From: an uncultured Clostridia bacterium
GTDB lineage: Bacteria > Bacillota > Clostridia > TANB77 > CAG-508
Direction of reading: 5' to 3'
Length of the DNA: 64,000 nt
Assembly: GCA_934133005.1 (NCBI GenBank)
Contig: CAKPAI010000001.1
Span: forward strand, 64,478-128,477
The first letter of the stretch is position 1. Each line of letters starts with the position of its first letter. The position numbers were made by a program, and so were the translations under genes. The notes under the pieces were generated by a model. It did not search any database and was not told where the DNA came from. It worked only from the letters and a program-made list of their open reading frames with translations. Positions 4,083-54,142 of this stretch are shown one piece after another.

Positions 4083-4820
4083 ATGAGCACAGCAGAAAAT
4101 TCTACTTTAAAATGTCCCATCCACTCATTCGAATCGATGGGCGCAGTTGATGGTCCTGGTCTTAGATTTGTAGTGTTTACACAAGGTTGCAATCTTCAAT
4201 GCAAGTACTGTCAAAACAGAGATACTTGGACTCACTCTGGTGGAACTTTTTATACAGTAGATGAATTACTTGAAAAAATTTTAAGATATAAAAACTACTT
4301 TACCGCTTCTGGTGGAGGCGTCACAATAAGTGGTGGTGAACCTCTTATTCACATGCAATTTTTGATAGAATTATTTAAAAAGTTAAAAGAGCACAATATT
4401 CATACTGCAATAGACACTTCTGGGGTATTTTATTTGACACCTGGTATGATAGAACTTATCAATTTAACAGATCTATTTTTACTTGATATAAAATGTATAA
4501 ATGATGAAATTTGCAAAGATTTAACTTCTGTTTCAAACCAAAAAGAATTAGAATTTGCAAAATATTTAAGTTCTATTGGCAAGCCTATGTGGATTAGACA
4601 AGTCCTTGTTCCTGGCTATACAGATAAAGAAGAAGATTTGTTAAAATTAAAAGAATTTTTAGCAAGCCTATCATCTGTTCAAAAGGTAGAAATACTTCCA
4701 TACCATGACATGGGAAAACACAAGTGGCTCGAAATGGGCCTAACTTATCCTTTAGAAAGTGTTAGAGTTGCAAATTCAGATGATGTTGATAGAGCTAAAA
4801 AAATATTAGGCTTAAACTAG
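4083..4820 (+). CDS. pflA: pyruvate formate-lyase activating enzyme (radical SAM)
   Basis: CNLQCKYCQN CxxxCxxC motif, immediately downstream of pflB. A stem-loop (GGGGGCC..GCCCCC) lies between the two genes. Confidence 0.9.
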   Translation: MSTAENSTLKCPIHSFESMGAVDGPGLRFVVFTQGCNLQCKYCQNRDTWTHSGGTFYTVDELLEKILRYKNYFTASGGGVTISGGEPLIHMQFLIELFKKLKEHNIHTAIDTSGVFYLTPGMIELINLTDLFLLDIKCINDEICKDLTSVSNQKELEFAKYLSSIGKPMWIRQVLVPGYTDKEEDLLKLKEFLASLSSVQKVEILPYHDMGKHKWLEMGLTYPLESVRVANSDDVDRAKKILGLN

Positions 4821-4902
4821 ATTTGCTAATATTTTTGAAAAAATATCCAAAAAATAAAAGAACCAAAATTGAATTTTTTATCAATTTGAGTTCTTTTTAT
4901 TT

Positions 4903-5757
4903 TTATAAAATTAAATCTATCATTAGTCCAGAAATTACAGATACTACATAAAGAATTCCCAAGATTGTTAAATTTTCTTTTATGTGTTTGTTTGATTTAA
5001 ATAGTACTAACATTCCTACTCCTGAACCTATTAATAGTCCTGCAATCATCGAACCTAGTGAAATTATATTTTGTAAATATAGCTGTGTTAAAATTACAGA
5101 ACTTGCACAGTTTGGAATAATTCCAACCAAAGCTGAAAGCATTACTCCTAGCACTGGCATGTTTACAACAATACTTGCAATTTGTTCTTCACCAATAAAG
5201 TGTACTATTGTATTTATAACAAAGCTTATTACTAAAATAAATAAAAATATATGTATTGTATGTTTTATTGCTGATTTTACAATTCCATGTTCACAATCGC
5301 AATGCTCATGGTCACACATATTTCCTACTGTTTCTTCAACAGTTTCATTCTTTTTTTCTTTATTTTTTAATTTTGATATTCCATCAATTATAAAACCAAC
5401 AACAATTCCTATTACTAATTTTATTGCAAGAATTTTTAAAATTAAGCCTATTGGTGCTGCTTCTGATATTAAAATTGGAAGCATTTCATCTGATGTAGAT
5501 AAAAATACAGCAATTAGTGTTCCCATTGTTATTATTCTTCCACTATATAAATTGGCTGCTGTTGCACTAAATCCACATTGTGGAACAACTCCTAATATTC
5601 CACCAAATAGTGGTCCTAATTTTCCTGATTTTTCTACAATATTTCTTACTTTTCCACTTGTTTTATGCTCTAAATATTCCATTAGCAAATATGCCAAAAA
5701 TAAAAATGGTATTAGTTTAAGGCTATCTACAAGTGTATCCTCTATTACTTCTATCAT
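4903..5757 (-). CDS. polytopic membrane protein, putative metal permease (ArsP/DUF2899-like) with a His/Cys-rich loop
   Basis: Multiple TM segments and a CDHEHCDCEH loop. The antisense ORF 4982-5770 is rejected. Confidence 0.4.
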   Translation of the reverse strand: MIEVIEDTLVDSLKLIPFLFLAYLLMEYLEHKTSGKVRNIVEKSGKLGPLFGGILGVVPQCGFSATAANLYSGRIITMGTLIAVFLSTSDEMLPILISEAAPIGLILKILAIKLVIGIVVGFIIDGISKLKNKEKKNETVEETVGNMCDHEHCDCEHGIVKSAIKHTIHIFLFILVISFVINTIVHFIGEEQIASIVVNMPVLGVMLSALVGIIPNCASSVILTQLYLQNIISLGSMIAGLLIGSGVGMLVLFKSNKHIKENLTILGILYVVSVISGLMIDLIL

Positions 5758-8100: not shown

Positions 8101-8682
8101 ATGAATATTTGCGTATACGGCGCAGCAAGTAGTTTAATTGATCCAAACTACATAGAAGCTGGAAAAGAATTAGGAAGAAAAATGGTTGAGCGTGGCCATG
8201 GTTTAGTATTTGGTGGAGGTTCTCATGGAATGATGGGAGCTCTTGCAGATGGTGTAGCAGAAAAGTCTGGATATATTTTAGGAATAATTCCTGAATTTTT
8301 TAAAGAAGCTAATTCAGAAGTTTCTTTTAACAACTGTTCAGAGTACATCTATACTGATACAATGAGAGAACGTAAACGTCTCTTAGAAGAAAAATCTGAT
8401 GCTTTTATAGTATCTCCTGGTGGAATTGGAACAATGGATGAATTCTTTGAAATACTTACATTAAAGCAATTAGGTAGACACAATAAAGCCATTGTTTTAT
8501 ATAATGTTAACGGATTTTTTGATGAGTTAGAAAATATGATGACAAAATCAATCGAACAACATTTCATAACAGATGACTGTAAAGAACTTTACAAAGTATC
8601 TTCAGATATAAATGAAATACTTGATTATATTGAATCTTATGATCCAACAGATATTGATTTAAGTAAAGTAAAAATTAGATAA
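8101..8682 (+). CDS. LOG family (TIGR00730) cytokinin-riboside-5'-phosphate phosphoribohydrolase-like protein
   Basis: Motifs GGGSHGMMGA and PGGIGTMDEFFE. Confidence 0.8.
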   Translation: MNICVYGAASSLIDPNYIEAGKELGRKMVERGHGLVFGGGSHGMMGALADGVAEKSGYILGIIPEFFKEANSEVSFNNCSEYIYTDTMRERKRLLEEKSDAFIVSPGGIGTMDEFFEILTLKQLGRHNKAIVLYNVNGFFDELENMMTKSIEQHFITDDCKELYKVSSDINEILDYIESYDPTDIDLSKVKIR

Positions 8683-8727
8683 AAGAAAAAGCACATTAAC
8701 TATTTAATAGTTAGCGTGCTTTTTTTA

Positions 8728-9855
8728 TTAGCTCATATAATCTTTTAACTTTTTGCTTCTACTTGGATGACGCAATTTTCTTAATGCTTTTGCTTCTATT
8801 TGTCTTATTCTCTCCCTAGTAACTTGAAACTCTTTTCCAACTTCTTCTAGTGTTCTTGATTTTCCGTCTTCCAATCCAAATCTTAACTTTAAAACTTTTG
8901 CCTCTCTTGGAGTAAGTGTTTTCATAACCTCTTCCAATTGCTCTCTAAGTAAAGTATATGCTGCAGCATCTTGTGGTGCTGGGCTATCATCATCTTGTAT
9001 AAAATCTCCTAAATGACTGTCTTCTTCTTCTCCTATTGGAGTTTCCAAAGATACTGGATCTTGAGCAATTTTTTGTATTTCTGTTACTTTTTCAACACTA
9101 ATTTCCATTTCTTTTGCAATTTCTTCTGGGGTTGGTTCTCTACCTAGCTGTTGTAATAAGTGTCTTGATGTTCTAATTAATTTATTAATTGTTTCAACCA
9201 TATGAACTGGAATTCTTATTGTTCTTGCTTGATCAGCAATAGCTCTTGTAATAGCTTGTCTTATCCACCATGTTGCATAAGTACTAAATTTATATCCTTT
9301 AGTATAATCAAATTTTTCAACAGCTTTTATAAGTCCCATATTTCCTTCTTGAATTAGGTCTAAAAATAACATACCTCTTCCAACATATTTTTTTGCAATA
9401 CTTACTACAAGTCTTAAATTTGATTCGGCAAGTTTTTGTTTTGCTTCTTCATCTCCTGCTAAAACTCTCTTAGCAAGTTCTAGCTCTTCATCATAAGTTA
9501 AAAGTGGAATTCTTCCAATTTCTCTTAAATACATTCTAACAGGATCATCAATGTTTATTCCTTCCATATTAGATATATCTAAATCTTCTACTTTTACCTC
9601 ATCCATTGCTTCAAGGTCTTCAATATCAGGTTCATCTAAGTCAACATCATCATCTTTTAAAACGTCTACGCCTAAATTTTCAAAAGCATCAAAAACCTTA
9701 TCCATTTGATCTGTATTAGCATCATCTAATTCACTTGCAAGCTCAGCATAAGTTATTTTTCCTTTTTCTTTTGCCTTTTTAATTATGTCATGTACTTTAG
9801 CTTCTGCACTATTTTCTTCTTGAACTTCTACTTTTTTTTCTTCTTTATTATTCAT
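8728..9855 (-). CDS. rpoD: RNA polymerase primary sigma factor
   Basis: Sigma-70 regions 2-4 ([29 protein letters not shown]). Lies 16 bp downstream of dnaG. Confidence 0.95.
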
Positions 9856-17639: not shown

Positions 17640-17960
17640 TTCCTTTCTATATCAAAAATAGCCGTCACTATAAGCTTTTAGACTTATAGGACGACTATAT
17701 ATTAATCGTGGTACCACCTATATTCGTTATTTCTAACCTCATTATCTTTTAACGCAAGTTTACGGCCTTTTTTACTGCTATTTCAAAAAGACGCCTCCAA
17801 AGTGAAATTATATGCAACTAATATATAAATGAATTTCAGCCTAGTTCATTTTCTCTAAAATATATTTTGCAGTTGCTTTTTTGCTTTTTCTCAGGCTTTA
17901 ACTTTAAGTATTATATACTATTTTAGCAAGGTTTGCAATATGTTTTAGAGAAAATAAAAC
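17640..17960 (-). promoter_or_regulatory. T-box riboswitch leader of the pheST operon
   Basis: Minus strand carries AATATAGGTGGTACCACG (T-box consensus AAnnnGGGTGGnACCGCG) at plus 17703-17722, followed by a terminator hairpin CGTCCTATAAG...CTTATAGTGACG and a T-run. Confidence 0.65.
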
Positions 17961-18012: not shown

Positions 18013-19884
18013 CTACACAAGCACCGCACGGAACCCGTAGATGCAAGCGGCAGTGCCATCAAGACGGTTGAAACAGAAGAGACCAGCACCGTAGCCAGTG
18101 CCCCACCCACCACCGCGAAGGAAGAACGGACCATCCAGTGAAAGAAAGTACGAGCAATCATTATACCAGCTCGAGTTACCATTTCCTTCTGTTGATGTTT
18201 CAAATATAGCACTACCGTATATTACTCTATTTACTTTGCTACCGTTAGTAGCACTCTGCAAGCCTTTTGCATAATTGTAGTTTAATATACTTGCTGCAGT
18301 GTAATCATCTCCACTATATGTTCCAGCTTTTTCATCTGGACTATATGCATACATAGTTGCATATTTACTACTTGCATTTAATAAATTTCCTTTTTCATCT
18401 GTTACAAATGCTTTTTTATTCTTCGTTGCACTTGTATATGCATTATAACTATTTCCATATGATGTATGGTTAGATGTTGTTTTATTTGTTATATAATCAG
18501 CTGTTCTTTCCCATTCTCCTCCTGACATATCAAATATTCCATACACATTTCCTGTTGTACTTGATTTTCCTCCACCAACTTCATTCCATACTTTTATATT
18601 AGCAGATTTTCTTTTATCTGCATCATTTACTTGATCTATACTTGATATTAATACAGAGCCGTCACTTGCATCTCTACTTGATTCTACTCCTGTTATAGCA
18701 TATACTCCTAAATATGGATTTACATATTTACCATTTCCATCTTTTGTGTCATCTGCAACTGTTCCACTTGCTGTTCCACTATTCATATTTACATTATTTA
18801 TATAAATATCATCTTTATTTAAACCATATTTACTTTTTCCTAAATATGCTGCAGCTCCCCATTCACTATTTTTCATTAAATGACTATCTGTATCACTACT
18901 TAATCCATATACATTATTATTTTCATTTAGAACACTACATAATGCAAATGCTTCTTTATGGTTTACATAGTTCATAGAATATGAAGTTCCTTGAAATGAT
19001 GGATAACTTATTTTTGTTTCTGTGTTTCCATACTCTCCATCAAGCCAGTTTCTTGCTTTTATACTACCATCAAATTTTCCAGTAGTTGTTACATCTTCTC
19101 CCTTATCGTTTTTACTTGTTTGCTCTGTAACTTTACTTTCTGCATATGCAGCCCATACACTACCTTGTGTATATTTTACTGTACTTTTTATATTTGGTGT
19201 AGAATTTCCATTTGATGTTGCAAATCCAGCCTCAAATTTTGCTACCCATATTCCAGTAAGTTCACTATCCCATCCTCCATTTGCAAATCCAATTGAGCTT
19301 TCATTTGTAAATGCTGGATGAACAGTATATTCATTACTTGTGTCTGGTGTATAATCTGTCGTTGCACGAGCTGCCTTTTTTATTTTTCCTTCTGATTCGT
19401 AATAATAATCAGTTTTTCCAATTAGAAATACCACATCAAATGTTTTTGTTTCACTATTTACTTTATATGCAAATCTTGGCACCCATACCCACATACTTCC
19501 ATCTTTAGTCTGCGCATTTGCCCAATGCTTTGCATCATAATCATACCATTTACTATCTCCAATAGTAGTTGTTTTTGCATTATACATTTTTGTAGTGCTA
19601 TTTTCTTCAAAATATATTGGTGTCATTCCTGTTTTTAAACTTGGTTTATTCACCCCATTATCATATTCAGATGATACTTGTGATATTTGAGCTTCAAGTT
19701 CTTCTATTGTGCTATACTCACCCTCTGTTGCATCTTTAGTTGCTTTTGCAGCTTCTTTTGCTCTTGCTATCAATCCATTTTGTCCTACTACCAAATTTAT
19801 TGATACACCTGCTAAAATTAAAAGTACTACTATTGTAACTACCAAAGCAACTAATGTTATTCCTAAATCCCTATTTCTTTTCAT
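18013..19884 (-). CDS. prepilin-like N-terminus / FGE-sulfatase (SUMF1-like) domain surface protein, copy 1
   Basis: N-terminus MKRNRDLG|ITLVALVVTIVVLLILAGV is a short basic leader followed by a hydrophobic helix, with Glu5 replaced by Ala. The C-terminal domain carries MWVWVPRF..., GIFDMSGGEWERT, RGGGW and GFRAVLV, all FGE-sulfatase hallmarks. A long S/T/N/G/Y-rich region sits in between. Confidence 0.6.
   Translation of the reverse strand: MKRNRDLGITLVALVVTIVVLLILAGVSINLVVGQNGLIARAKEAAKATKDATEGEYSTIEELEAQISQVSSEYDNGVNKPSLKTGMTPIYFEENSTTKMYNAKTTTIGDSKWYDYDAKHWANAQTKDGSMWVWVPRFAYKVNSETKTFDVVFLIGKTDYYYESEGKIKKAARATTDYTPDTSNEYTVHPAFTNESSIGFANGGWDSELTGIWVAKFEAGFATSNGNSTPNIKSTVKYTQGSVWAAYAESKVTEQTSKNDKGEDVTTTGKFDGSIKARNWLDGEYGNTETKISYPSFQGTSYSMNYVNHKEAFALCSVLNENNNVYGLSSDTDSHLMKNSEWGAAAYLGKSKYGLNKDDIYINNVNMNSGTASGTVADDTKDGNGKYVNPYLGVYAITGVESSRDASDGSVLISSIDQVNDADKRKSANIKVWNEVGGGKSSTTGNVYGIFDMSGGEWERTADYITNKTTSNHTSYGNSYNAYTSATKNKKAFVTDEKGNLLNASSKYATMYAYSPDEKAGTYSGDDYTAASILNYNYAKGLQSATNGSKVNRVIYGSAIFETSTEGNGNSSWYNDCSYFLSLDGPFFLRGGGWGTGYGAGLFCFNRLDGTAACIYGFRAVLV
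18150..19884. repeat. ~1.7-kb segmental duplication, copy A (pairs with 27010-28737)
   Basis: Positions 18160-19295 are identical to 27021-28155 base for base. About 95% identity extends to roughly 19690 and about 80% further 5'. Confidence 0.9.
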
Positions 19885-23230: not shown

Positions 23231-23359
23231 TTTATTATCTCCTTTTGTAACATTTATTTAACAAATCATATTGTATCATAAAATTATTGGAATTGCAATT
23301 ATTTTTATGATATATAATATACTTTCCTTTTTCTTAAAGGAGAAAGGGGGTGTTCTCAG

Positions 23360-23428
23360 TTGAGAAAATTTATTAAGATATTAGTTCTTATTATCGTTCT
23401 CATTATTGTAGACGATGATAAAGACTAA
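23360..23428 (+). CDS. 22-aa hydrophobic peptide LRKFIKILVLIIVLIIVDDDKD, Fst/Ibs-like candidate type I toxin
   Basis: AAAGGAGAAAGGGGGTG followed by a TTG start. Paralogous to 24702-24770 and 46149-46217. Missing from the ORF track because it is under 60 aa and TTG-initiated. Confidence 0.45.
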   Translation: MRKFIKILVLIIVLIIVDDDKD

Positions 23429-23468
23429 AAAAAACAAACAGCATAATTGCTACACTGCTTGTTTTATT

Positions 23469-24548: not shown

Positions 24549-24701
24549 ACTAACCTCCTGCTATATTTTATGCAGACGGCTAATAAATGTTAAAATACCT
24601 AAATTTTTTTTATTTAGACTACACGTTTTGACAAACTTTGCAACATTTTTGTTATATAATATAGTTCCTTTATCCCTAAAGGAGAAAGGGGGTGTTCTCA
24701 A

Positions 24702-24770
24702 TTGAGAAGACTAATAGAGATATTAGCTCTTATTATTGTTTATATTATAATAAACAATGATAAAGACTAA
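24702..24770 (+). CDS. 22-aa hydrophobic peptide (M/L)RRLIEILALIIVYIIINNDKD, Fst/Ibs-like candidate type I toxin
   Basis: Promoter TTGACA 24628-24633 with an extended -10. SD AAAGGAGAAAGGGGGTG and a TTG start. Terminator immediately downstream. Confidence 0.5.
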   Translation: MRRLIEILALIIVYIIINNDKD

Positions 24771-24776
24771 AAAGGT

Positions 24777-26862: not shown

Positions 26863-28737
26863 CTACACAAGCACCGCACGGAACCCGTTGTTGTAATTGG
26901 CATTGCCATTATTACGGTTGAAATAGAACAGACCAGCACCATTGCCATTATCCCATCTACCACCGCGAATGAAGAACGGATTATTCAGCGAAGGAAAGTA
27001 CGAGCAGTCATTATACCAGCTCGAGTTACCATTTCCTTCTGTTGATGTTTCAAATATAGCACTACCGTATATTACTCTATTTACTTTGCTACCGTTAGTA
27101 GCACTCTGCAAGCCTTTTGCATAATTGTAGTTTAATATACTTGCTGCAGTGTAATCATCTCCACTATATGTTCCAGCTTTTTCATCTGGACTATATGCAT
27201 ACATAGTTGCATATTTACTACTTGCATTTAATAAATTTCCTTTTTCATCTGTTACAAATGCTTTTTTATTCTTCGTTGCACTTGTATATGCATTATAACT
27301 ATTTCCATATGATGTATGGTTAGATGTTGTTTTATTTGTTATATAATCAGCTGTTCTTTCCCATTCTCCTCCTGACATATCAAATATTCCATACACATTT
27401 CCTGTTGTACTTGATTTTCCTCCACCAACTTCATTCCATACTTTTATATTAGCAGATTTTCTTTTATCTGCATCATTTACTTGATCTATACTTGATATTA
27501 ATACAGAGCCGTCACTTGCATCTCTACTTGATTCTACTCCTGTTATAGCATATACTCCTAAATATGGATTTACATATTTACCATTTCCATCTTTTGTGTC
27601 ATCTGCAACTGTTCCACTTGCTGTTCCACTATTCATATTTACATTATTTATATAAATATCATCTTTATTTAAACCATATTTACTTTTTCCTAAATATGCT
27701 GCAGCTCCCCATTCACTATTTTTCATTAAATGACTATCTGTATCACTACTTAATCCATATACATTATTATTTTCATTTAGAACACTACATAATGCAAATG
27801 CTTCTTTATGGTTTACATAGTTCATAGAATATGAAGTTCCTTGAAATGATGGATAACTTATTTTTGTTTCTGTGTTTCCATACTCTCCATCAAGCCAGTT
27901 TCTTGCTTTTATACTACCATCAAATTTTCCAGTAGTTGTTACATCTTCTCCCTTATCGTTTTTACTTGTTTGCTCTGTAACTTTACTTTCTGCATATGCA
28001 GCCCATACACTACCTTGTGTATATTTTACTGTACTTTTTATATTTGGTGTAGAATTTCCATTTGATGTTGCAAATCCAGCCTCAAATTTTGCTACCCATA
28101 TTCCAGTAAGTTCACTATCCCATCCTCCATTTGCAAATCCAATTGAACTTTCATTTGTAAATGCTGGATGAACTGTATATTCATTGCTTGTGTCTGGTGT
28201 ATAATCTGTTGTTGCACGAACTGCCTTTTTTATTTTTCCTTCTGATTCGTAATAATAATCAGTTTTTCCAATTAGAAATACTACATCAAATGTTTTTGTT
28301 GCACTATTTACTTTATATGCAAATCTTGGCACCCACACCCACATACTTCCATCTTTAGTCTGTGCATTTGCCCAATGTTTTGCATCATAATCATACCATT
28401 TACTATCTCCAACAGTAGTTGTTTTTGCATCATACATTTTTGTAGTACTATTTTCCTCAAAATATATTGGTGTCATTCCTGTTTTTAAACTTGGTTTATT
28501 CACTTTATCATACTCTGATGATACTTGTGATATTTGAGCCTCAAGTTCTTCTATTGTACTATACTCACCTGCTGCCGCGTCTTTAGTTGCCTTTGCAGAC
28601 TCCTTTGCTCTTGCAATAATTCCATTATCACCAACAAGTGTGTTAATTGTTACTCCTGCTAAAATTAGCAATACAATTATTGTTACAACTAATGCTACTA
28701 ACGTAATACCTGCATTACTTCTAATTTTCTTTTTCAT
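26863..28737 (-). CDS. prepilin-like N-terminus / FGE-sulfatase domain surface protein, copy 2
   Basis: MKKKIRSNAG|ITLVALVVTIIVLLILAGV. The central ~1.1 kb is identical to copy 1. The C-terminal cassette differs and reads RGGRWDNGNGAGLFYFNRNNGNANYNNGFRAVLV. Confidence 0.6.
   Translation of the reverse strand: MKKKIRSNAGITLVALVVTIIVLLILAGVTINTLVGDNGIIARAKESAKATKDAAAGEYSTIEELEAQISQVSSEYDKVNKPSLKTGMTPIYFEENSTTKMYDAKTTTVGDSKWYDYDAKHWANAQTKDGSMWVWVPRFAYKVNSATKTFDVVFLIGKTDYYYESEGKIKKAVRATTDYTPDTSNEYTVHPAFTNESSIGFANGGWDSELTGIWVAKFEAGFATSNGNSTPNIKSTVKYTQGSVWAAYAESKVTEQTSKNDKGEDVTTTGKFDGSIKARNWLDGEYGNTETKISYPSFQGTSYSMNYVNHKEAFALCSVLNENNNVYGLSSDTDSHLMKNSEWGAAAYLGKSKYGLNKDDIYINNVNMNSGTASGTVADDTKDGNGKYVNPYLGVYAITGVESSRDASDGSVLISSIDQVNDADKRKSANIKVWNEVGGGKSSTTGNVYGIFDMSGGEWERTADYITNKTTSNHTSYGNSYNAYTSATKNKKAFVTDEKGNLLNASSKYATMYAYSPDEKAGTYSGDDYTAASILNYNYAKGLQSATNGSKVNRVIYGSAIFETSTEGNGNSSWYNDCSYFPSLNNPFFIRGGRWDNGNGAGLFYFNRNNGNANYNNGFRAVLV
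27010..28737. repeat. ~1.7-kb segmental duplication, copy B (pairs with 18150-19884)
   Basis: See copy A. The flanks outside the CDS are unrelated. Confidence 0.9.
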
Positions 28738-45963: not shown

Positions 45964-46148
45964 ATCTTTGTATATAATATAACTAAAATTAGCAATTGTC
46001 AAGTACAATTGCTAATTTTTTTATAGTTTTTTATTCATCTAATATTTTTAATTTTTTCACTTCTCCTACACGCTTCGACAGACTTTGCAATTTTTATGTT
46101 ATATAATTATATTTCCTTTATCCTAAAGGAGAAAGGAGGTGCTTTTCG

Positions 46149-46217
46149 TTTGAAAAAGCTTATAAAAGTTCTAGTACTTATCATCCTTTATATGATTATA
46201 AACGATGACAAAGACTA
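46149..46217 (+). CDS. 22-aa hydrophobic peptide (M/L)KKLIKVLVLIILYMIINDDKD, Fst/Ibs-like candidate type I toxin
   Basis: AAAGGAGAAAGGAGGTG followed by a TTG start. Third paralog of this module. Confidence 0.5.
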
Positions 46218-46219
46218 AA

Positions 46220-46254
46220 GTAAAATACTAGGGATGGCAGTCCCTAGTATTTTT
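46220..46254. terminator. bidirectional rho-independent terminator
   Basis: ACTAGGGATGGCAGTCCCTAGT followed by TTTTTT, with an A-run upstream. Confidence 0.65.
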
Positions 46255-46374: not shown

Positions 46375-46614
46375 TTACTTGATTGAATATGAACTTCCAT
46401 CTTCACTTAATTTTAGTTCAACATTCGATTTTAAACATATTACTGGGCGAATTCCTCCATAATAGAAATCAATGTCAGCAAAGCTTATATTTGAACTATT
46501 ACTATTCACACAACTTACTCTTGTAGTTAAATTTGCATTAGGACTTGCCAACCAATACATGTATCCATGATTAAATATGGCAGTATTGAAAATTATCCAA
46601 AGACAAATACACAT
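46375..46614 (-). pseudogene. C-terminal fragment of a pilin-like protein (…GIRPVICL…SEDGSSYSIK), lacking the N-terminal signal
   Basis: C-terminus is homologous to 50930-51238. No prepilin-like N-terminus upstream. Confidence 0.35.
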
Positions 46615-46995: not shown

Positions 46996-48979
46996 TTACC
47001 ACGAACCTCCTCCACCTCCTCCAGAGCCACCTCCAGATGAACCACCTCCAGAACTGCTTCCGCTATCACTTGATGGACTAGATGACATAGCACTTTGTGC
47101 TGATCTCATTGTATCATTCATAAAATGATTAAATTCATGAATACTAAATGCACTATAGCCTACATACCAATCTGGAGCTTGTATTGCTATTGTTTCAAAT
47201 TGACTCATCCAAACCTCAGATACTCCTAAAGCATAAGTATAAGGAAGAATATTGTAAAAATACTCTGGATTTTCATTCACTAGCGCCTCTAGTTGAAGTT
47301 TTTCTGCTGTTTCTAAAAACCTTTTAAATCCACTTAGTTTTCCCAACATTTCATTTCCAAATGGTGTCCTTTTAGGCATTATCTTAACAAATAATATCAA
47401 TACTGCAATACTAATTATACCAATAATATAAGTTATTAAATACATTACATCTTGAGTTAATGTTGGTAATACCATAAAAGCCCAAGGCATTCCTCCAAAC
47501 ATTCCACCCCATATTATTGCAAATAATTTAGGCATTTTTATTGCACCTATAAGGCTTCCTATCAATATGGTAAATCCTATTCCGTGGAAATAATAATGCA
47601 AATAGCAATGTTCCAACTTCTCCATATTCAATAACAGGTTTTACTGTTATTAAAATAAATACCGCAATAATCATTAGTATTAAATATTTTCCTTTACCGC
47701 TTGCTGATGATTCAAATATTTCATTCTTATTCTCTTTTGAATTCATTTTTGTTTTTATTCTATTTAATGTTGTATAGAAATTATCATATAAATCAGATGA
47801 AGTAACAGATATTTTAGCATTAGAATTATCCATTGACATTTCCATAGCATCTTGGAAACTAATTTTTTCTCCTCGTATTTTAGATTCTTTAATAATTTTT
47901 TGTGCTTTTACCATATTTACAGAACCAGTTATTCTACCTTTAAAAAGTCCATTAAAAAATAACCTTTCACATTCATTATTTCCATCATATTCTTTTATTT
48001 TTGTAATTCTAAAACCTTTAGATTTCTTGAATATTCCTCGTTCTTCTGTTTCTTCAATTTTCAAGTAACCTTGATTAGCTAAATAAATAAGTAATGATAT
48101 AATTCCTTTTGTATCTGCTGATCCATTATATAAAAATCCTACTTCTGCTGAGTTATATCCCTCTGGCGGATAAAATTCTACTGTTTCAACTACTTGTTCA
48201 TCTTTTCCATATTTTGCCCATAATCTATCTGCAATTAAAACAAATATCGCACACAAAATTATAACAAATATAGAAAATATATCAATATTACTACTTGCTC
48301 CAACGAAATACCCTTCTGGTAGAGTAAGTCTCACAGTTAATGCTTGTCCAGCATTTAGTGTATTTATAATATTTCCTGTAATAATATTTCCATTTACACT
48401 ATATATTACATTAGAACTATTAGTAGAACCTACATTTCCACTTGAAAAACCTAAAAGTGATTTATCAAAAGATTTAGGCATTGTTATAGAAAAAGATACA
48501 TTACTTATACTTGTATCCCATTGTTCGCCAATTAAGTTAAAATATAATTCATCTGCATTTTTCAAAGGATCTTTTCCTATATTATACTTATATTTAATTG
48601 TATAACTATGTTTTCCTGTGAATGTTTGATTGGTATTTCCAATTTTTATCACTTTATACCCATTTTCATTAGTAGTAGTATAATCTTCGCTTACATTAAT
48701 ATCTATTATTTGGGCTCTATTATTTGATTTAGTTCCATCAGTTCTAGTGATTGAATTTTTTAAAGGAATTTTTCTATAGATTCCGTGCTTTGCCATATTA
48801 AAATATGCGGTGATATTTTCTGTTATGTCAAAAGTGTTATCTTCATTTACAATCATATTTATGTTATATGATTGTATGGTATATTCGCTTGTTGATATTA
48901 CTCCTAATGATTGATTCGGTATTAGCAATATAAAACACATAATTATAACGAATATTCCACTCAAACTCTTTTGTTTCAT
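46996..48979 (-). pseudogene. DUF2207 family membrane protein split by a frameshift (ORFs 47528-48979 and 46996-47631)
   Basis: Two overlapping ORFs in different frames together cover the DUF2207 architecture: signal, extracellular domain, TM, cytoplasmic region, TMs and a Gly-rich tail. The frameshift maps to about 47600-47631. Confidence 0.5.
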
Positions 48980-48980
48980 A

Positions 48981-49523
48981 TTATAAATCCACCTTTACAT
49001 TATTTTTTTCATTTGTGTTTACCTTAAACATATTGGCAGAATGAAATCCAAACAGATTAGCTACAATATTACTAGGAAACATTTGAATTTTATCATTAAA
49101 ATTTCTTACAGTTCCATTGTAATATTTTCTACTATTTGCTATTTCATCTTCTATTTTAGTTAAATCATGACTTAATTCAATAAAGTTTTGATTAGCTTTT
49201 AAATCTGGATAATTTTCAGAAATAGCCATAATTCTTGATAAGCCTTGAGTTAACTGTTCATTCATATTAATTTTCTTGTCCATTGACATAGTTTCATAAG
49301 CATTCGTTCTTAAAGCTGTAATTTTTTCAATCGTTTCTTTTTCATGTTTTGCATATCCTTTTACAACCTCAACTAGATTAGGGATTAAGTCCCATCTTTT
49401 TTTCAGATATACATCCATTGTTGAAAATGCTTCTTTTACAAGATTGTTCGACTTTATTAATCCATTATATGTTACAAGAACATATAATAATATTATTAAT
49501 CCAATAATTATATATAATGTCAT
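48981..49523 (-). CDS. lemA: LemA family protein
   Basis: N-terminal TM segment plus a LemA domain. The LemA/DUF2207 pairing is conserved. Confidence 0.85.
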   Translation of the reverse strand: MTLYIIIGLIILLYVLVTYNGLIKSNNLVKEAFSTMDVYLKKRWDLIPNLVEVVKGYAKHEKETIEKITALRTNAYETMSMDKKINMNEQLTQGLSRIMAISENYPDLKANQNFIELSHDLTKIEDEIANSRKYYNGTVRNFNDKIQMFPSNIVANLFGFHSANMFKVNTNEKNNVKVDL

Positions 49524-49534
49524 TGTAAATTCTC

Positions 49535-50797
49535 CTATTTAATATCTTTATATTTTTTCATCTTTATTCCAAATATTACCAATAAGATAAAATTAAATGT
49601 CATTATTATATAGATAGCATTACTTACACCTGTTTTAGGTAAAGTACTTTTTGAAATTGTGTTATCTTTAGATGTGCTACTAGTTTGTTGTGCTGTCTGT
49701 GGTTTTTGTGTTTGTTCTTGCTGTTGCCCAGCTGAATCATTTTCACTAGGCTTATTATTTGTAGTTGTAGTATTTATTTTTAATGTTATTGTATCTAAAG
49801 TCTTATTTTCTGTATTTTCTTCTACAGTAATATAAAACGATTTTTTTGTTTCTCCCACATAAATATATCCATTAGCTTTTCCAACTCTTGTTCCAGTAAT
49901 TTCCACACAATTTTCATTTACCTCTTTATAATCATAGCCAGAACCAGAAATTTCGTGACCTGTAATTTTCTCTGTTGCTTCAAATCTACATTTTTGCCCA
50001 ACTTTTAATTCAATTGAATAATCAGCATTATCCTTTGTAATATCCTTATTTAAAAAAGATTCACCTATTTGGTTAGCATATCCTTTTATTTTTGAAAAGT
50101 CTGCATCAACATTTACAGTTAATGATGATACTAATTTGCAAGAAGTCTCAGTTACATCTTTTCTTTCAGTAACCAATTCATAAGAATTAATACCACTTGT
50201 CGTATCTGCTATTGTTTGTTTATCTTTGTATGTAGCATTTACATATTCCATTACTTTTTCGCCAAACTCAGAAGCATATATAGTTTTTGTATCACTTTCA
50301 TCTCTATCTATTGTAACACCATCTGACATATTAGTATCATCAATAATTACATATGAATTTTCACTTGACCAAGAGCCATTAAAAGCATTTCCTAAATATG
50401 ACATAAAAAAATATGCATTTGCATCTTCAAACTCTACACCTTGAATTTTTGCCACCGCAATATAACCAATCATAGGTAAAATTAAATTATCTGTTTGAGC
50501 TTTAAAATCTTTATAGCTCATACCTTTCTCAATAGGAATTTCTAAAGTAAATTTTGGTTTTTCTGCTAAGTTATAATTTAGAGTATAACTTTTTCCATCA
50601 ACTGCTATTGTGATGATATTATCAGATACAGTAATTTTATAATTATTTTCATTTGCACCTGACGAAACAAATTCTTGTAAAGACGCATTAAGATTTTCTT
50701 TTGTTACAGTTATAGCCGTAGCATAACAATTAATAAACAAACTATTCAATAATAAAATATTTAATATTAATAGTGTTATTTTTCTTATTTTTTGCAT
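49535..50797 (-). CDS. LPXTG-anchored cell-wall surface protein
   Basis: Signal peptide. C-terminus reads LPKTG, then a hydrophobic stretch, then KKYKDIK. A Q/T-rich stalk is present. Confidence 0.75.
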   Translation of the reverse strand: MQKIRKITLLILNILLLNSLFINCYATAITVTKENLNASLQEFVSSGANENNYKITVSDNIITIAVDGKSYTLNYNLAEKPKFTLEIPIEKGMSYKDFKAQTDNLILPMIGYIAVAKIQGVEFEDANAYFFMSYLGNAFNGSWSSENSYVIIDDTNMSDGVTIDRDESDTKTIYASEFGEKVMEYVNATYKDKQTIADTTSGINSYELVTERKDVTETSCKLVSSLTVNVDADFSKIKGYANQIGESFLNKDITKDNADYSIELKVGQKCRFEATEKITGHEISGSGYDYKEVNENCVEITGTRVGKANGYIYVGETKKSFYITVEENTENKTLDTITLKINTTTTNNKPSENDSAGQQQEQTQKPQTAQQTSSTSKDNTISKSTLPKTGVSNAIYIIMTFNFILLVIFGIKMKKYKDIK

Positions 50798-50929: not shown

Positions 50930-51420
50930 TTACTTGATTGAATATGAACTTCCATCTTCACTTAAAATTAATGTTACTGATGAGTTTAAACAAACAACCG
51001 GTCGAATACCAACGCTATTATATATTCCACTCGTATATAAATCTTCTCTTTCTCCTGATACATATTTGTTAAAATTTTTACTATCACTCGGAGCTGCAAC
51101 CCAATAACTTACTCCATTATTATATATAGAATTCTTAACCAGTTTCATTTCATTATACATTTTATAACCAGTATCACTTTGTGATATTTCAATATTTTTA
51201 TCGTAATATTTATTATATGATTTTATAATCATTTCCAATGTAGGTGCCCCAATTACCCAAGCAGCTCTTTTGCCCTATTTATTCCATTTTGTCCTACTAC
51301 TAAGTTTATTGATGCTCTTGCTAAAATTAAAAGTACTACTAAGTCAACTAATGTTATACCGTGATTTTCTTTAATATGTCAGTGTGTACAGCCTCAAGGC
51401 TTTCATAGTATTTCATTATT
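50930..51420 (-). pseudogene. decayed pilin-like gene: degenerate leader MKALRLYTLTY*, out-of-frame G|ITLVDLVVLLILA… segment, plus the 102-aa ORF 50930-51238
   Basis: Leader is homologous to the upstream region of 51447-52770. The (GT)n tract is collapsed to about (GT)3. Internal stops are present. Confidence 0.4.
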
Positions 51421-51446: not shown

Positions 51447-52770
51447 TTATTTTAAAAATAATGTTGCTCGAAAACCAGTATCATTATTTATTATTTGAAT
51501 ATATGTTGCATCCCATCTATTTCCTGCTGCTCCCAAAAATAAGCCAGAACTTCCTCCTCTAAATATTACATTATCATCAACTCCAATATTTAGTTCAGTT
51601 GTATATTCTACTACATTTCCTCCCATATCAAATATATTACTTTTAGCTCCTGTTTGCCCTGTGAGTAATTTCTTTCCTACTCCAGCTTCCTTTATTACAT
51701 ATCCATTACTATCCACCACTTGTTGATTAATCCAATTTTCATTGAATCCATTTATTGACGTTGCATAATTTGTCGCCCCATTGTTCATTATAAAATTTAT
51801 TGCTGTATCCCATGCATAACTTGAGCAAAGATATGTTGTTGCACTAGTTCCGTCTCCGATTTCTTTTGACAAGGAATATGCAGAAGACCATGTTTGCTTG
51901 CTACATACTTCTTTATTACTCTTAATAACTACTTTTTCATCTTCAACACCAACTTCATATCTTCCTATATAGTAACCTCCATATTTCTTTACACTTGCAA
52001 ACTCGCTGTTTATTTGTTTTACTATCTCTTTTGATACTTCTTCATTTATTCCATTATCTGTATCTGTTTTTAAATATGTTACATTACTATCTGTTAGTGT
52101 TAATTCGTCCTTCCACGCTTCTGTTTCATTATCGTTTTCAACATTCCATCTTGTTCTTTGATACTGTAATTTATCACTTCCATCCATTGCACATGGTATC
52201 CATACATATTCATTTCCAGTCGAATCTTCTTTTATTACTAGTCCCTTATCTACTAAGTTTTCTCCTTCTACTGTTGATACTGTAAAGCCTGTTGGTATTG
52301 GTGCTTTTTTACCATTTACATCTGTATAAACTGTACAATCTGTTGTTTCATTTTCACTAAAATCTTGACTACATATTTCTGATAATTTTATTTCATAATT
52401 TCCATACTCGGCTTTTGTTTTCAAAACTGTATCTGATTTCAAGTAATAACTTTCTGGCACATTTTCAAAATATCTATCTAATACATCCTTTAAGTTTGTA
52501 TTTAGGAATTCCATAGTTTTTACTTTCGTTTGCTCTGCTACAATTTCTGTTTGTACTTCATCTATTAAACTTGCTAACGTTGTATTCTTCGCTGCCTCTT
52601 TCGCTCTATTTATTAGTCCATTTTGTCCTACTACCAAATTTATTGTTACTCCTGCTAAAATTAAAAGCACTACTATCGTTACCACTAAAGCAACTAACGT
52701 TATACCGTGATTTTCTTTAAGATATCGGTGTGTGTGTGTGTGTGTGTGTGTACAGCCTCAAGGCTTTCAT
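51447..52770 (-). CDS. prepilin-like/FGE-domain paralog, currently out of frame with both upstream ATGs (track ORF 51447-52685 begins with GTG inside the hydrophobic helix)
   Basis: Body frame reads ...(TH)4 RYLKENHG|ITLVALVVTIVVLLILAGV... with FGE motifs NIFDMGGNVVEYT, RGGSSG and GFRATLFLK. ATG 52768-52770 (MKALRLY-) is at +1 relative to the body and ATG 52778-52780 (MKNYESLEAV-) at -1. The two are separated from the body by (GT)12. Confidence 0.5.
52728..52751. repeat. (GT)12 / (AC)12 dinucleotide microsatellite in the 5' region of the pilin-like gene
   Basis: Read directly from the sequence. It is the only long dinucleotide SSR in the window. Confidence 0.95.
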
Positions 52771-52894
52771 AATTTTTCATTTTATTTTTCTCCTTTGCTT
52801 TTTATCATTTATTTTAGAAATAATGTTACTCGGAAGCCATAACGAGTACCATTATCACTAGTACCACCATCGCAACGATATCCGGGCAGGACCT

Positions 52895-54142
52895 TTATTT
52901 CCATAGTATCCTCCGACGTAATACAATTGGATCTAATATCCCTGGATTTATCTCTGTTGTAAATTCTATTATATTTCCACCCATATCAAAAATATTGCTT
53001 TTAGCTGTCGTTTTTCCTGTTAGTAACCTTTCATTGTCTTCTTCTGATTTAATTATAATTCCATTATTGTTCGTTATACTCTTATTGCTCCAATTTTCAT
53101 TAAATCCATCTATTGACTTTGCGTAATTCTTTGTTCCATTATTCATTATAAAGTTTACTGCTGTATCCCACGCATAGCTTGAACATAAATACGTTGTTGC
53201 ACCGGTTCCTGCTCCTATTCCTTTTGCTAAATTATAAGCTTCTGTCCACCTTGTTGTATTTCCATTTACTGTTCCTGCATATGGTTCTTTATTTGCTTGC
53301 ACTACTGCCTTGTAATTTTCTCCTATACCTGTTTCATATCTTCCTATATAGTAACCTCCATATTTCTTTACACTTGTAAACTCGCTGTTTATTTGATTTA
53401 CTATCTCTTTTGATACTTCTTCATTTATTCCATTATCTGTTTCTGTTTTTAAATATGTTACATTGCTATCTGTTAGTGTTAATTCATCTTTCCATGATTC
53501 TGTTCCATTATCCGTTTCAACACCCCATCTTGTTCTTTGATACTGTAATTTATCGCTTCCATCCATTGAGCATGGTATCCATACATATTCATTTCCAGTC
53601 GAATCTTCTCTTATTACTAGACCTTTATCAACTAAGTTCTCTCCTTCTACTGTTGACACGGTAAAGCCTGTTGGCACTGGTGCTTTATTTCCATTTCTAT
53701 CTGTATATGTTGTACAATCTGTTGTTTCATTTTCACTAAAATCTTGACTACATATTTCTGATAATTTTATTTCATAATTTCCATACTCGGCTTTTGTTTT
53801 CAAAACTGTATCTGATTTCAAGTAATAACTTTCTGGCACATTTTCAAAATATCTATCTAATACATCCTTTAAGTTTGTATTTAGGAATTCCATAGTTTTT
53901 ACTTTCGTTTGCTCTGCTACAATTTCTGTTTGTACTTCATCTATTAAACTTGCTAACGTTGTATTCTTCGCTGCTTCTTTCGCTCTATTTATTAGTCCAT
54001 TTTGTCCTACCACTAAATTTATTGATACTCCTGCTAAAATTAAAAGTACAACAATTGTTACAACAAGCGCAACTAACGTTATACCTGAATTTTTCTTATT
54101 CATCTCACTATATATAGTTTTTATTCTATTTGCTTCTCTCAT
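52895..54142 (-). CDS. prepilin-like/FGE-domain paralog with a frameshifted, GC-rich C-terminal end
   Basis: MREANRIKTIYSEMNKKNSG|ITLVALVV… About 85% identical to 51447-52685. The ORF ends at …ILDPIVLRRRILWK*, but the other two frames over 52815-52900 encode …VGGYYGNKGPAR… and …RYGFRVTLFLK*, the expected FGE C-terminus. Confidence 0.55.
   Translation of the reverse strand: MREANRIKTIYSEMNKKNSGITLVALVVTIVVLLILAGVSINLVVGQNGLINRAKEAAKNTTLASLIDEVQTEIVAEQTKVKTMEFLNTNLKDVLDRYFENVPESYYLKSDTVLKTKAEYGNYEIKLSEICSQDFSENETTDCTTYTDRNGNKAPVPTGFTVSTVEGENLVDKGLVIREDSTGNEYVWIPCSMDGSDKLQYQRTRWGVETDNGTESWKDELTLTDSNVTYLKTETDNGINEEVSKEIVNQINSEFTSVKKYGGYYIGRYETGIGENYKAVVQANKEPYAGTVNGNTTRWTEAYNLAKGIGAGTGATTYLCSSYAWDTAVNFIMNNGTKNYAKSIDGFNENWSNKSITNNNGIIIKSEEDNERLLTGKTTAKSNIFDMGGNIIEFTTEINPGILDPIVLRRRILWK

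Follow-up and report, generated by a model that had tools for sequence, protein, structure and literature searches.

A 64,000-nt stretch of contig CAKPAI010000001.1, which we call the window, is ordinary chromosome from a metagenome-assembled genome (MAG) of an uncultured spore-forming human-gut Clostridia bacterium, and it carries four minus-strand open reading frames (ORFs), A1, A2, the open part of B1, and B2, whose positions (Table 1) agree with those given in an earlier sequence-only reading of this DNA. As that reading had noticed, all four proteins carry the common leader ...G-ITLVALVVTIVVLLILAGV-INLVVGQNGLI.RAKEA, and the motifs WVWVPRF or YVWIPC, IFDM(S/G)G..E.T, RGG, and GFRA(V/T)L are found in the proteins. 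The interpretation that we favor, with a probability of about 80%, is that these loci constitute a repertoire of surface ligand-binding proteins in which the tails of A1 and A2 are diversified by a diversity-generating retroelement (DGR) and B1 is phase-switched. The proteins had been taken for a single family, but there are two, A1 and A2 being 94% identical and B1 and B2 being 80% identical, with a BLASTP match between A and B that is limited to the first ~50 residues. The DNA encoding the leader is a repeat family in its own right (D4), with copies in A1, A2, B1, B2, and the pseudogene fragment 2. The C-terminal modules of A and B are related at the profile level only (hhalign probability 97%, E 3.5e-11), in an alignment of the ectodomains that spans WVWVPRF to GFRAVLV and accommodates ~250 residues of insertions in A.

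The differences between A1 and A2 are concentrated at the very end of the genes, with 25 mismatches in the last 148 nt and 13 in the 1,440 nt upstream, and at 19 of the 25 tail mismatches A2 has an adenine where A1 has another base. The block that forms the putative variable region (VR) has a GC content of 46-55% (55% for the A1 VR) compared with 29% for the window, and the adenine-free, GC-rich 24-mer at the 3' end of A1 is identical in A2 and has exactly two occurrences in the window. The same pattern is found between strains, where 23 unique near-identical variants of the A1/A2 genes display 13 C-terminal haplotypes, with variation at 18 of the last 50 codons versus 14 of 574 body positions, and in A2 the first or second base is an adenine in 16 of the 18 strain-variable codons (Fisher p = 1.2e-7). 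Certain strain proteins that differ from each other by 1 residue in the body differ by 9-12 residues in the tail, indicating that the diversification is recent, and at the A2-type locus 9 unique strain proteins represent 8 VR haplotypes. The AAY-rich tail of A2 is the state expected of an unmutated template copy, and this all-Asn state recurs in independent strains at both the A1 and the A2 loci. One member (P0413) of the set of A1/A2 orthologues from other strains, P0407-P0420, has an A2-type N-terminus together with the A1 VR haplotype, a combination suggestive of recombination between the two loci. Among the tandem family-A paralogues at a locus in another Clostridia MAG (L024), the bodies are 87-95% identical and the tails are hypervariable at the same positions as in A1 and A2. 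Within the window, the confinement of adenine-specific variation to a short C-terminal block is a property of A1 and A2 only. The sequence-only reading had described a family diversifying through duplication, mosaic ends, frameshifts, and a microsatellite; the mosaic ends of A1 and A2 are real, but they are a discrete adenine-specific hypervariable block, in all likelihood the variable regions of a DGR, and the main mechanism operating there would be mutagenic retrohoming rather than duplication, mosaicism, or frameshifting.

Table 1. Features of the two gene families in the window (positions count from the first nucleotide of the window).
Feature	Position	Strand	Description
A1	18013..19884	-	ORF, 623 aa: pilin-like leader and hydrophobic helix, helical stalk, insertion-rich C-lectin (FGE-sulfatase-like) module, putative C-terminal DGR variable region
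A1 leader	19798..19884	-	MKRNRDLG then ITLVALVVTIVVLLILAGVSI; class-III-like signal, Ile at +1, Ala at +5
A1 variable region	18037..18135	-	Diversified state, ...LDGPFFLRGGGWGTGYGAGLFCFNRLDGTAACIYGFRAVLV
A1 adenine-free 3' end	18013-18036	-	GGGTTCCGTGCGGTGCTTGTGTAG; same in A2
A2	26863..28737	-	ORF, 624 aa, family-A paralogue of A1
A2 variable region	26887..26985	-	Template-like state, AAY Asn codons, ...LNNPFFIRGGRWDNGNGAGLFYFNRNNGNANYNNGFRAVLV
Fragment 1	46375..46614	-	C-terminal remnant of DUF6273-type domain
Fragment 2	50930..51416	-	Pseudogene; same leader, (CA)2 remnant, several frameshifts, DUF6273-type (C-lectin-like) C-terminus
B1	51447..52780	-	Family B, compact C-lectin module, same leader; start is ATG at 52780; open part 51447-52685; phase-OFF in this strain
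(CA)11 tract	52729..52750	-	Between B1 start codon and leader
B2	52809..54142	-	Family-B paralogue; 415-aa ORF 52895-54142; ancestral stop near 52809

Homologues of these proteins are associated with recognizable retroelements. In an uncultured Bacilli MAG (locus L010), a homologue of 551 aa lies ahead of a complete cassette comprising a VR, a template repeat (TR), Avd, and a reverse transcriptase (RT). The VR of this cassette (8664-8815) has a perfect 10-bp hairpin directly downstream, 16 of 17 substitutions fall on adenines of the TR (9263-9417), the Avd protein matches the PHROG family "Avd protein of DGR" (E 6e-22), and the RT is recognized at E 2e-98 and has a 99%-identical protein carrying PF00078. 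At a second locus (L030), a chromosomal bAvd-RT cassette composed of a MutS_I-like ORF, bAvd, and RT lies among housekeeping genes with no adjacent target gene. Its TR is present as two tandem copies (4440-4590 and 4840-4990) in a repeat unit of ~400 nt and encodes the Asn-rich ...RGGNYNNGSNAGVFNFNRNNGG... and ...NSWFIRGGNYNNGSNAGVFNFNRNNGGTNSNNSARAVL, which is the same architecture as that of the VRs in the window; the shared architecture and the missing adjacent target together indicate that the DGRs of that clade act on remote targets belonging to this protein family. The locus of a prevalent RT homologue (P0282) is a real DGR, but it did not supply the cognate TR of A1 and A2, its TR being that of another target subfamily.

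Scans of the window proteins against Pfam and NCBIfam gave nothing significant, and the formylglycine-generating enzyme (FGE)-sulfatase domain PF03781, which had been predicted from the motifs, was not matched by any of them at E <= 1, so that family-level scans were needed. Taken at its word, the sequence-only reading would be refuted by the missing PF03781 match, but the relatives tell a different story. PF03781 is matched by 35 of 50 diverse B relatives (best E 8.7e-10) but by just 1 of 41 A relatives, and the B profile reaches the solved structures of SUMF2 (7e-6), CarF, PorK/GldK, TvpA (9e-4), PvdO, and FGE. The AlphaFold model of B1 is confident, with a mean predicted local distance difference test score (pLDDT) of 86.5 and values above 90 over residues 117-412, and the two best structural matches of the module are non-enzymatic DGR variable proteins. 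The module thus has a C-type-lectin fold that would bind a ligand, and it is this fold that carries the variable residues.

Both families are large. At least 6,974 relatives of family A are present in a database clustered at 90%; none of them has a Pfam domain on record, and nearly all are unnamed or labelled "hypothetical protein [Clostridia bacterium]." For the B module, clustering at 50% gives 4,127 representatives, and the module also forms part of giant multidomain proteins. The tandem family-A array at L024 (1890-15792; also at L025 and L026) comprises seven paralogues of 576-577 aa and sits in the dcw cell-division cluster, between a penicillin-binding protein (PBP)/PASTA gene and a Mur ligase gene. 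A phage origin of the window proteins was considered and rejected, since they have no tblastn match in 50,697 phage records and no PHROG match, and on these comparisons they read as cellular proteins that are not phage-derived.

Family B differs from A1 and A2 in how it varies. The tails of B1 and B2 show no variation among three strains and have a normal GC content, and DGR activity on this pair was therefore rejected. The microsatellite picked out in the sequence-only reading is indeed present as a (CA)11 tract near the start of B1, and its length is polymorphic: in the window the (CA)11 allele leads to a stop after 26 codons, in strain locus L002 a (CA)10 allele is in frame and gives a protein of 443 aa, and in L003 a (CA)12 allele is out of frame. 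By these allele lengths the tract has every appearance of a classical slipped-strand phase-variation switch. The C-terminal region of B2 contains two frameshifts that are kept in other strains, and the resulting split into 415 and 31 aa is also present in L002 and L003, indicating that the disruption is old or tolerated; the frameshifted tail (52809-52960, minus strand) still encodes ...GTRYGFRVTLFLK in another frame. Two decayed fragments had been assigned the same design as the intact genes, and this is true of fragment 2 insofar as it has the same leader, but neither fragment is FGE-type, since their C-termini match DUF6273 (PF19789). Fragment 1 scores 23.9 bits against a cut-off of 23.5 (E 4e-5), and no leader is seen upstream of it, while positions 50930-51238 of fragment 2 score 16.4 bits, which is below the cut-off (E 8e-3); the last 36 nt are identical between the two. 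DUF6273 is a C-lectin-like module that is also targeted by DGRs (PMC10743442).

The leader consists of a short basic segment ending in Gly (median length 9-10 residues), followed by ~20 hydrophobic residues. The Gly at -1 hardly varies and +1 is occupied by Ile or Val, while position +5 of the mature protein, where a type IV pilin has Glu, is Ala in all window copies, in 117 of 119 A-family members, and in 89 of 113 B-family members, with Glu in 1 of the 113. Residues T2, L3, L6, and I15-L16-A17 of the leader and helix align to solved pilins, and the A and B profiles produce weak matches to solved pilins that are restricted to the N-terminus. The N_methyl model (PF07963), proposed in the sequence-only reading as a check, falls short of its gathering score of 21.2 in the window, at 14.0 (A1), 10.7, and 18.2 bits, the truncated B1 ORF gives no match, and none of the window proteins passes an NCBIfam pilin model. 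N_methyl does match 36 of 41 family members in one set and 27 of 50 B relatives (best E 2.7e-4), and the leader of the L010 homologue is canonical (KKG|FTLAE). On these matches the leader is clearly pilin-derived, and it is a distinct and strongly conserved variant that is found on thousands of proteins; its presence in nearly unchanged form on different cargo suggests a recognized sorting signal.

Several observations weigh against a DGR acting on A1 and A2 or against the assignment of their fold. Neither repeat analysis nor short-word BLAST revealed a TR for A1 and A2 in the window, and none was found within 10 kb past either end; gene content was examined over this same region of ~84 kb, and there is no RVT_1 domain among its annotated genes. 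An RT motif scan of the window likewise found none and, when extended to all loci, did not reveal the RT serving A1 and A2, an exact 22-mer did not lead to their TR in either GTDB genomes or IMG/VR, masked VR patterns searched in JGI metagenomes and IMG/VR matched no TR and a single additional VR (L021), and the loci of the next-closest paralogues, P0009 and P0010, did not provide the cognate TR or RT. Six of the 25 tail mismatches lie away from adenines, A1 and A2 have in the shared 24-mer a candidate IMH-like 3' end but no strong hairpin in common downstream of the VR, and the A1-type locus has mostly one VR haplotype (7 strain proteins), such that it may be inactive. Structure prediction, which served well for B1, gave for A1 a model (built with 41 fairly close sequences) with pLDDT below 50 from residue 447 that is too poor to be used for fold assignment, and the fold of family A consequently rests on profile homology. 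The missing TR and RT, the six non-adenine mismatches, and the chimeric P0413 protein could all be accommodated if the tail variation were the product of ordinary diversifying selection and gene conversion among paralogues, with no retroelement involved. We regard this explanation as improbable, because the adenine specificity (19 of 25 and 16 of 18) is a DGR signature that selection is not expected to produce, the all-Asn state recurs independently at both loci, the variable block is GC-rich within an AT-rich gene, and homologues have complete cassettes. Since the cognate elements were not located, the assignment to a DGR in this genome depends on the mutational signature and the homologues, from which we infer that a cognate TR and RT exist elsewhere in the genome. 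A different alternative concerns the function of the module, which could be an active membrane-tethered formylglycine-generating enzyme or related oxidase, given that its fold is common to FGE, EgtB, OvoA, and PvdO and that homologues match PF03781. Catalysis by FGE requires a pair of Cys residues located in the segment between RGG and GFR. In neither family alignment does an invariant or nearly invariant column hold Cys, B1 has no Cys between RGG and GFR, and in family A this segment is the hypervariable block; together with the best structural matches being non-enzymatic, this makes the enzyme explanation very improbable indeed. The earlier description of the module as SUMF1-like was therefore right in recognizing the fold but wrong in function, and the proteins are probably variable adhesins rather than sulfatase-maturing enzymes.

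How the leader operates allows two explanations, each of which can be joined to the repertoire of variable surface proteins. One, which would extend it, is that the proteins belong to the type IV pilins proper, as modular minor or tip subunits that a prepilin peptidase cleaves after Gly and whose hydrophobic helix inserts into a type IV filament, so that the filament displays the DGR-diversified lectin module away from the cell. The shape of the leader with its ~21 hydrophobic residues, the residues shared with solved pilins, the nearly invariant Gly -1, the N_methyl matches among relatives, and the canonical G|FTLAE leader at L010 are all consistent with this, and the near-unchanged leader on different ectodomains suggests recognition by dedicated machinery. 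The tip pseudopilin GspK of the type II secretion system lacks Glu5, and the missing Glu5 here would fit a tip-capping subunit; moreover, Streptococcus sanguinis has modular pilins bearing adhesin or lectin modules. We nevertheless consider genuine pilins somewhat unlikely, as Ala replaces Glu5 in the great majority of members, the window copies all score below the N_methyl cut-off, and they pass no NCBIfam pilin model. Furthermore, no gene for a prepilin peptidase (peptidase A24), a PilB/PilT-type pilus ATPase, or a PilC-type platform protein was found in the ~84 kb formed by the window and its 10-kb flanks, no pilin head domain is confidently predicted, and a density of at least four paralogues per 64 kb, with seven in tandem elsewhere, is unusual for tip pilins. 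The same absence of Glu5, sub-threshold scores, and lack of nearby pilus genes would be accounted for if the N-terminus were only a Sec-dependent signal anchor, the relic of a pilin helix, making these type II membrane proteins in which the helical stalk, with no filament, carries the lectin module across the wall. Most cellular DGR targets simply have an N-terminal transmembrane segment or signal peptide (PMC8144416). We see this as a serious possibility that falls a little short of even odds, because a leader that is near-invariant across thousands of proteins with different cargo, including Gly -1 and the post-helix NG(I/L)I..A, is more than a plain anchor needs. At the more speculative end, the Gly-(Ile/Val)-Thr-Leu-(Ile/Val)-Ala leader might represent, in uncultured gut Clostridia and Bacilli, a separate class of type-IV-pilin-like sorting signal that lacks Glu5 and delivers large cargo modules to a type IV filament tip or a dedicated surface assembly, with the DGR-diversified members being hypervariable, phase-switchable pilus-tip lectins; as a whole this proposal is unlikely, and we put it forward tentatively.

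Taking the loci as a repertoire of variable surface proteins, a mechanism can be proposed in which the pilin-derived leader and hydrophobic helix hold the protein in the membrane or pass it through the membrane, followed by a helical stalk of ~50 residues and then by the C-terminal FGE-sulfatase-subtype C-type-lectin domain, which would present the binding surface. The last ~100 nt of A1 and A2 would be the DGR variable region. An Asn-rich TR elsewhere in the genome would be transcribed and reverse-transcribed with errors at adenines, and the error-bearing cDNA would replace the VR, so that ~16 codons of the binding surface are re-randomized while the scaffold remains fixed. The B copies would contribute the same leader and fold without hypervariability, one of them being switched by the (CA)n tract near the 5' end of its coding sequence, the other frameshifted. 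Together the loci would supply a changeable and switchable set of proteins that are exposed on the surface, bind ligands, and act as adhesins or receptors.

The genes surrounding these loci include pheST with a T-box leader, RNase R, secG, hrcA-grpE-dnaK-dnaJ, SipL, YunB, CotJ, SpoVA, and Spo0A, and copies identical to window genes sit on metagenome contigs of 200-570 kb. Among the GTDB representatives reached by the locus search, the best match is 45% identical. The A2 locus is syntenic in a related species, at L027, where a 57%-identical orthologue adjoins DHH and CotJ genes. The T-box leader (Rfam RF00230, 94.7 bits) lies at 17684-17901 on the minus strand, upstream of pheS and directly downstream of the A1 stop codon. 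A protein of 420 aa without a Pfam match, encoded at 49535-50797 on the minus strand, resembles a sortase substrate in having a C-terminal LPKTG followed by a hydrophobic stretch and a basic tail, and it is followed, at 48981-49523 and 46996-48979, by LemA and by a DUF2207 gene that is split into two overlapping ORFs. In addition, a cassette of ~180 nt occurs three times on the plus strand (23304-23431, 24594-24773, and 46041-46221), each copy containing a TTGACA/TATAAT-like promoter, an AGGAG ribosome-binding site, a 22-codon ORF, and a terminator-like palindrome. The ORF encodes a hydrophobic peptide with the consensus RKLIKILVLIIVYIIINDDKD after the start codon, and these cassettes are possible genes for small membrane peptides or for type I toxin-like products.

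DGRs reach their highest density in the human gut, and the cellular targets studied to date have been mainly lipoproteins and phage tail fibers and, recently, Bacteroides type V pilus adhesins. The families described here are very large and lack annotation in uncultured low-GC gut Firmicutes, and they merit proper family annotation. Three layers of surface variation occur in one chromosome region: retroelement hypermutation, duplication into arrays, and an on/off switch based on a dinucleotide repeat. In practical terms, the A1 and A2 variable regions are natural strain-level markers. Should the leader truly be a pilin signal, type IV filaments of Gram-positive bacteria would be connected to DGR diversification and a widespread Glu5-less leader class would be defined, and if the lectin modules do sit at a pilus tip, Gram-positive gut bacteria would have an antibody-like adhesin repertoire at the end of a retractable fiber.

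The sequence-only reading had regarded the combination of a pilin-like N-terminus and an FGE-type module as undescribed; the kind of protein is known, since cellular DGR targets are usually composed of an N-terminal transmembrane or signal segment and a C-terminal C-lectin VR (PMC8144416). A "GspG-type pilin" domain is listed among the rare domains that hold a VR (PMC11661182), and in the literature searched no paper was found that joins DGRs to prepilin or N-methylation leaders. What is new here is that surface proteins of the DGR-type C-lectin kind are carried on a pilin-like leader lacking Glu5, with remote hypermutated targets and phase-variable and decayed paralogues in one genome.

The closest comparators are TaqVP of Thermus aquaticus (PDB 5vf4) and TvpA of Treponema denticola (PDB 2y3c), both of which are DGR variable proteins with an FGE-sulfatase-type C-lectin fold. 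TvpA is a lipoprotein and TaqVP is without a pilin-like leader, whereas the window proteins are anchored by a pilin-derived leader with Ala at +5 and contain, in family A, ~250 residues of insertions in the fold; they also differ in being multi-copy targets with no TR or RT within 84 kb and in lying beside non-diversified and phase-variable paralogues. Compared with FGE and its paralogue pFGE (SUMF1 and SUMF2; PF03781), the window proteins lack the conserved Cys pair, and the segment corresponding to the active site is the hypervariable block. The prototype DGR target, Mtd of Bordetella phage BPP-1, forms the tip of a phage tail fiber, in contrast to the window proteins, which have no phage homologues and are encoded among housekeeping and sporulation genes. 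With type IV pilins and pseudopilins (N_methyl PF07963; GspK and PilB/PilC of Streptococcus sanguinis) the window proteins have in common a short basic leader that ends in Gly, a hydrophobic alpha1-N helix whose residues at 2, 3, 6, and 15-21 resemble those of pilins, and the grafting of a large module that is not a pilin domain. The window proteins differ in carrying Ala instead of Glu at +5 and Ile or Val instead of Phe or Met at +1, in scoring below the family threshold, and in having no nearby assembly genes and no evident pilin head domain. In concept, the Bacteroides DGRs that diversify type V pilus adhesins (bioRxiv 10.1101/2024.11.15.621889) are similar, being described as gut-bacterial DGRs that diversify pilus-associated adhesive components; they belong to another pilus system with lipoprotein-type precursors and to the Bacteroidota, whereas the link of the window proteins to a pilus is the type-IV-pilin-like leader only. 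Finally, the "pilin-like" proteins of TANB77, from uncultured low-GC gut Clostridia, have one N-terminal transmembrane helix, include a 621-aa member (pilin 938) that was considered as a candidate homologue, and are encoded in a Tad/CpaF-type pilus cluster (PMC11680825); compared by description only, they differ from the window genes, which do not adjoin any Tad/CpaF-type cluster.

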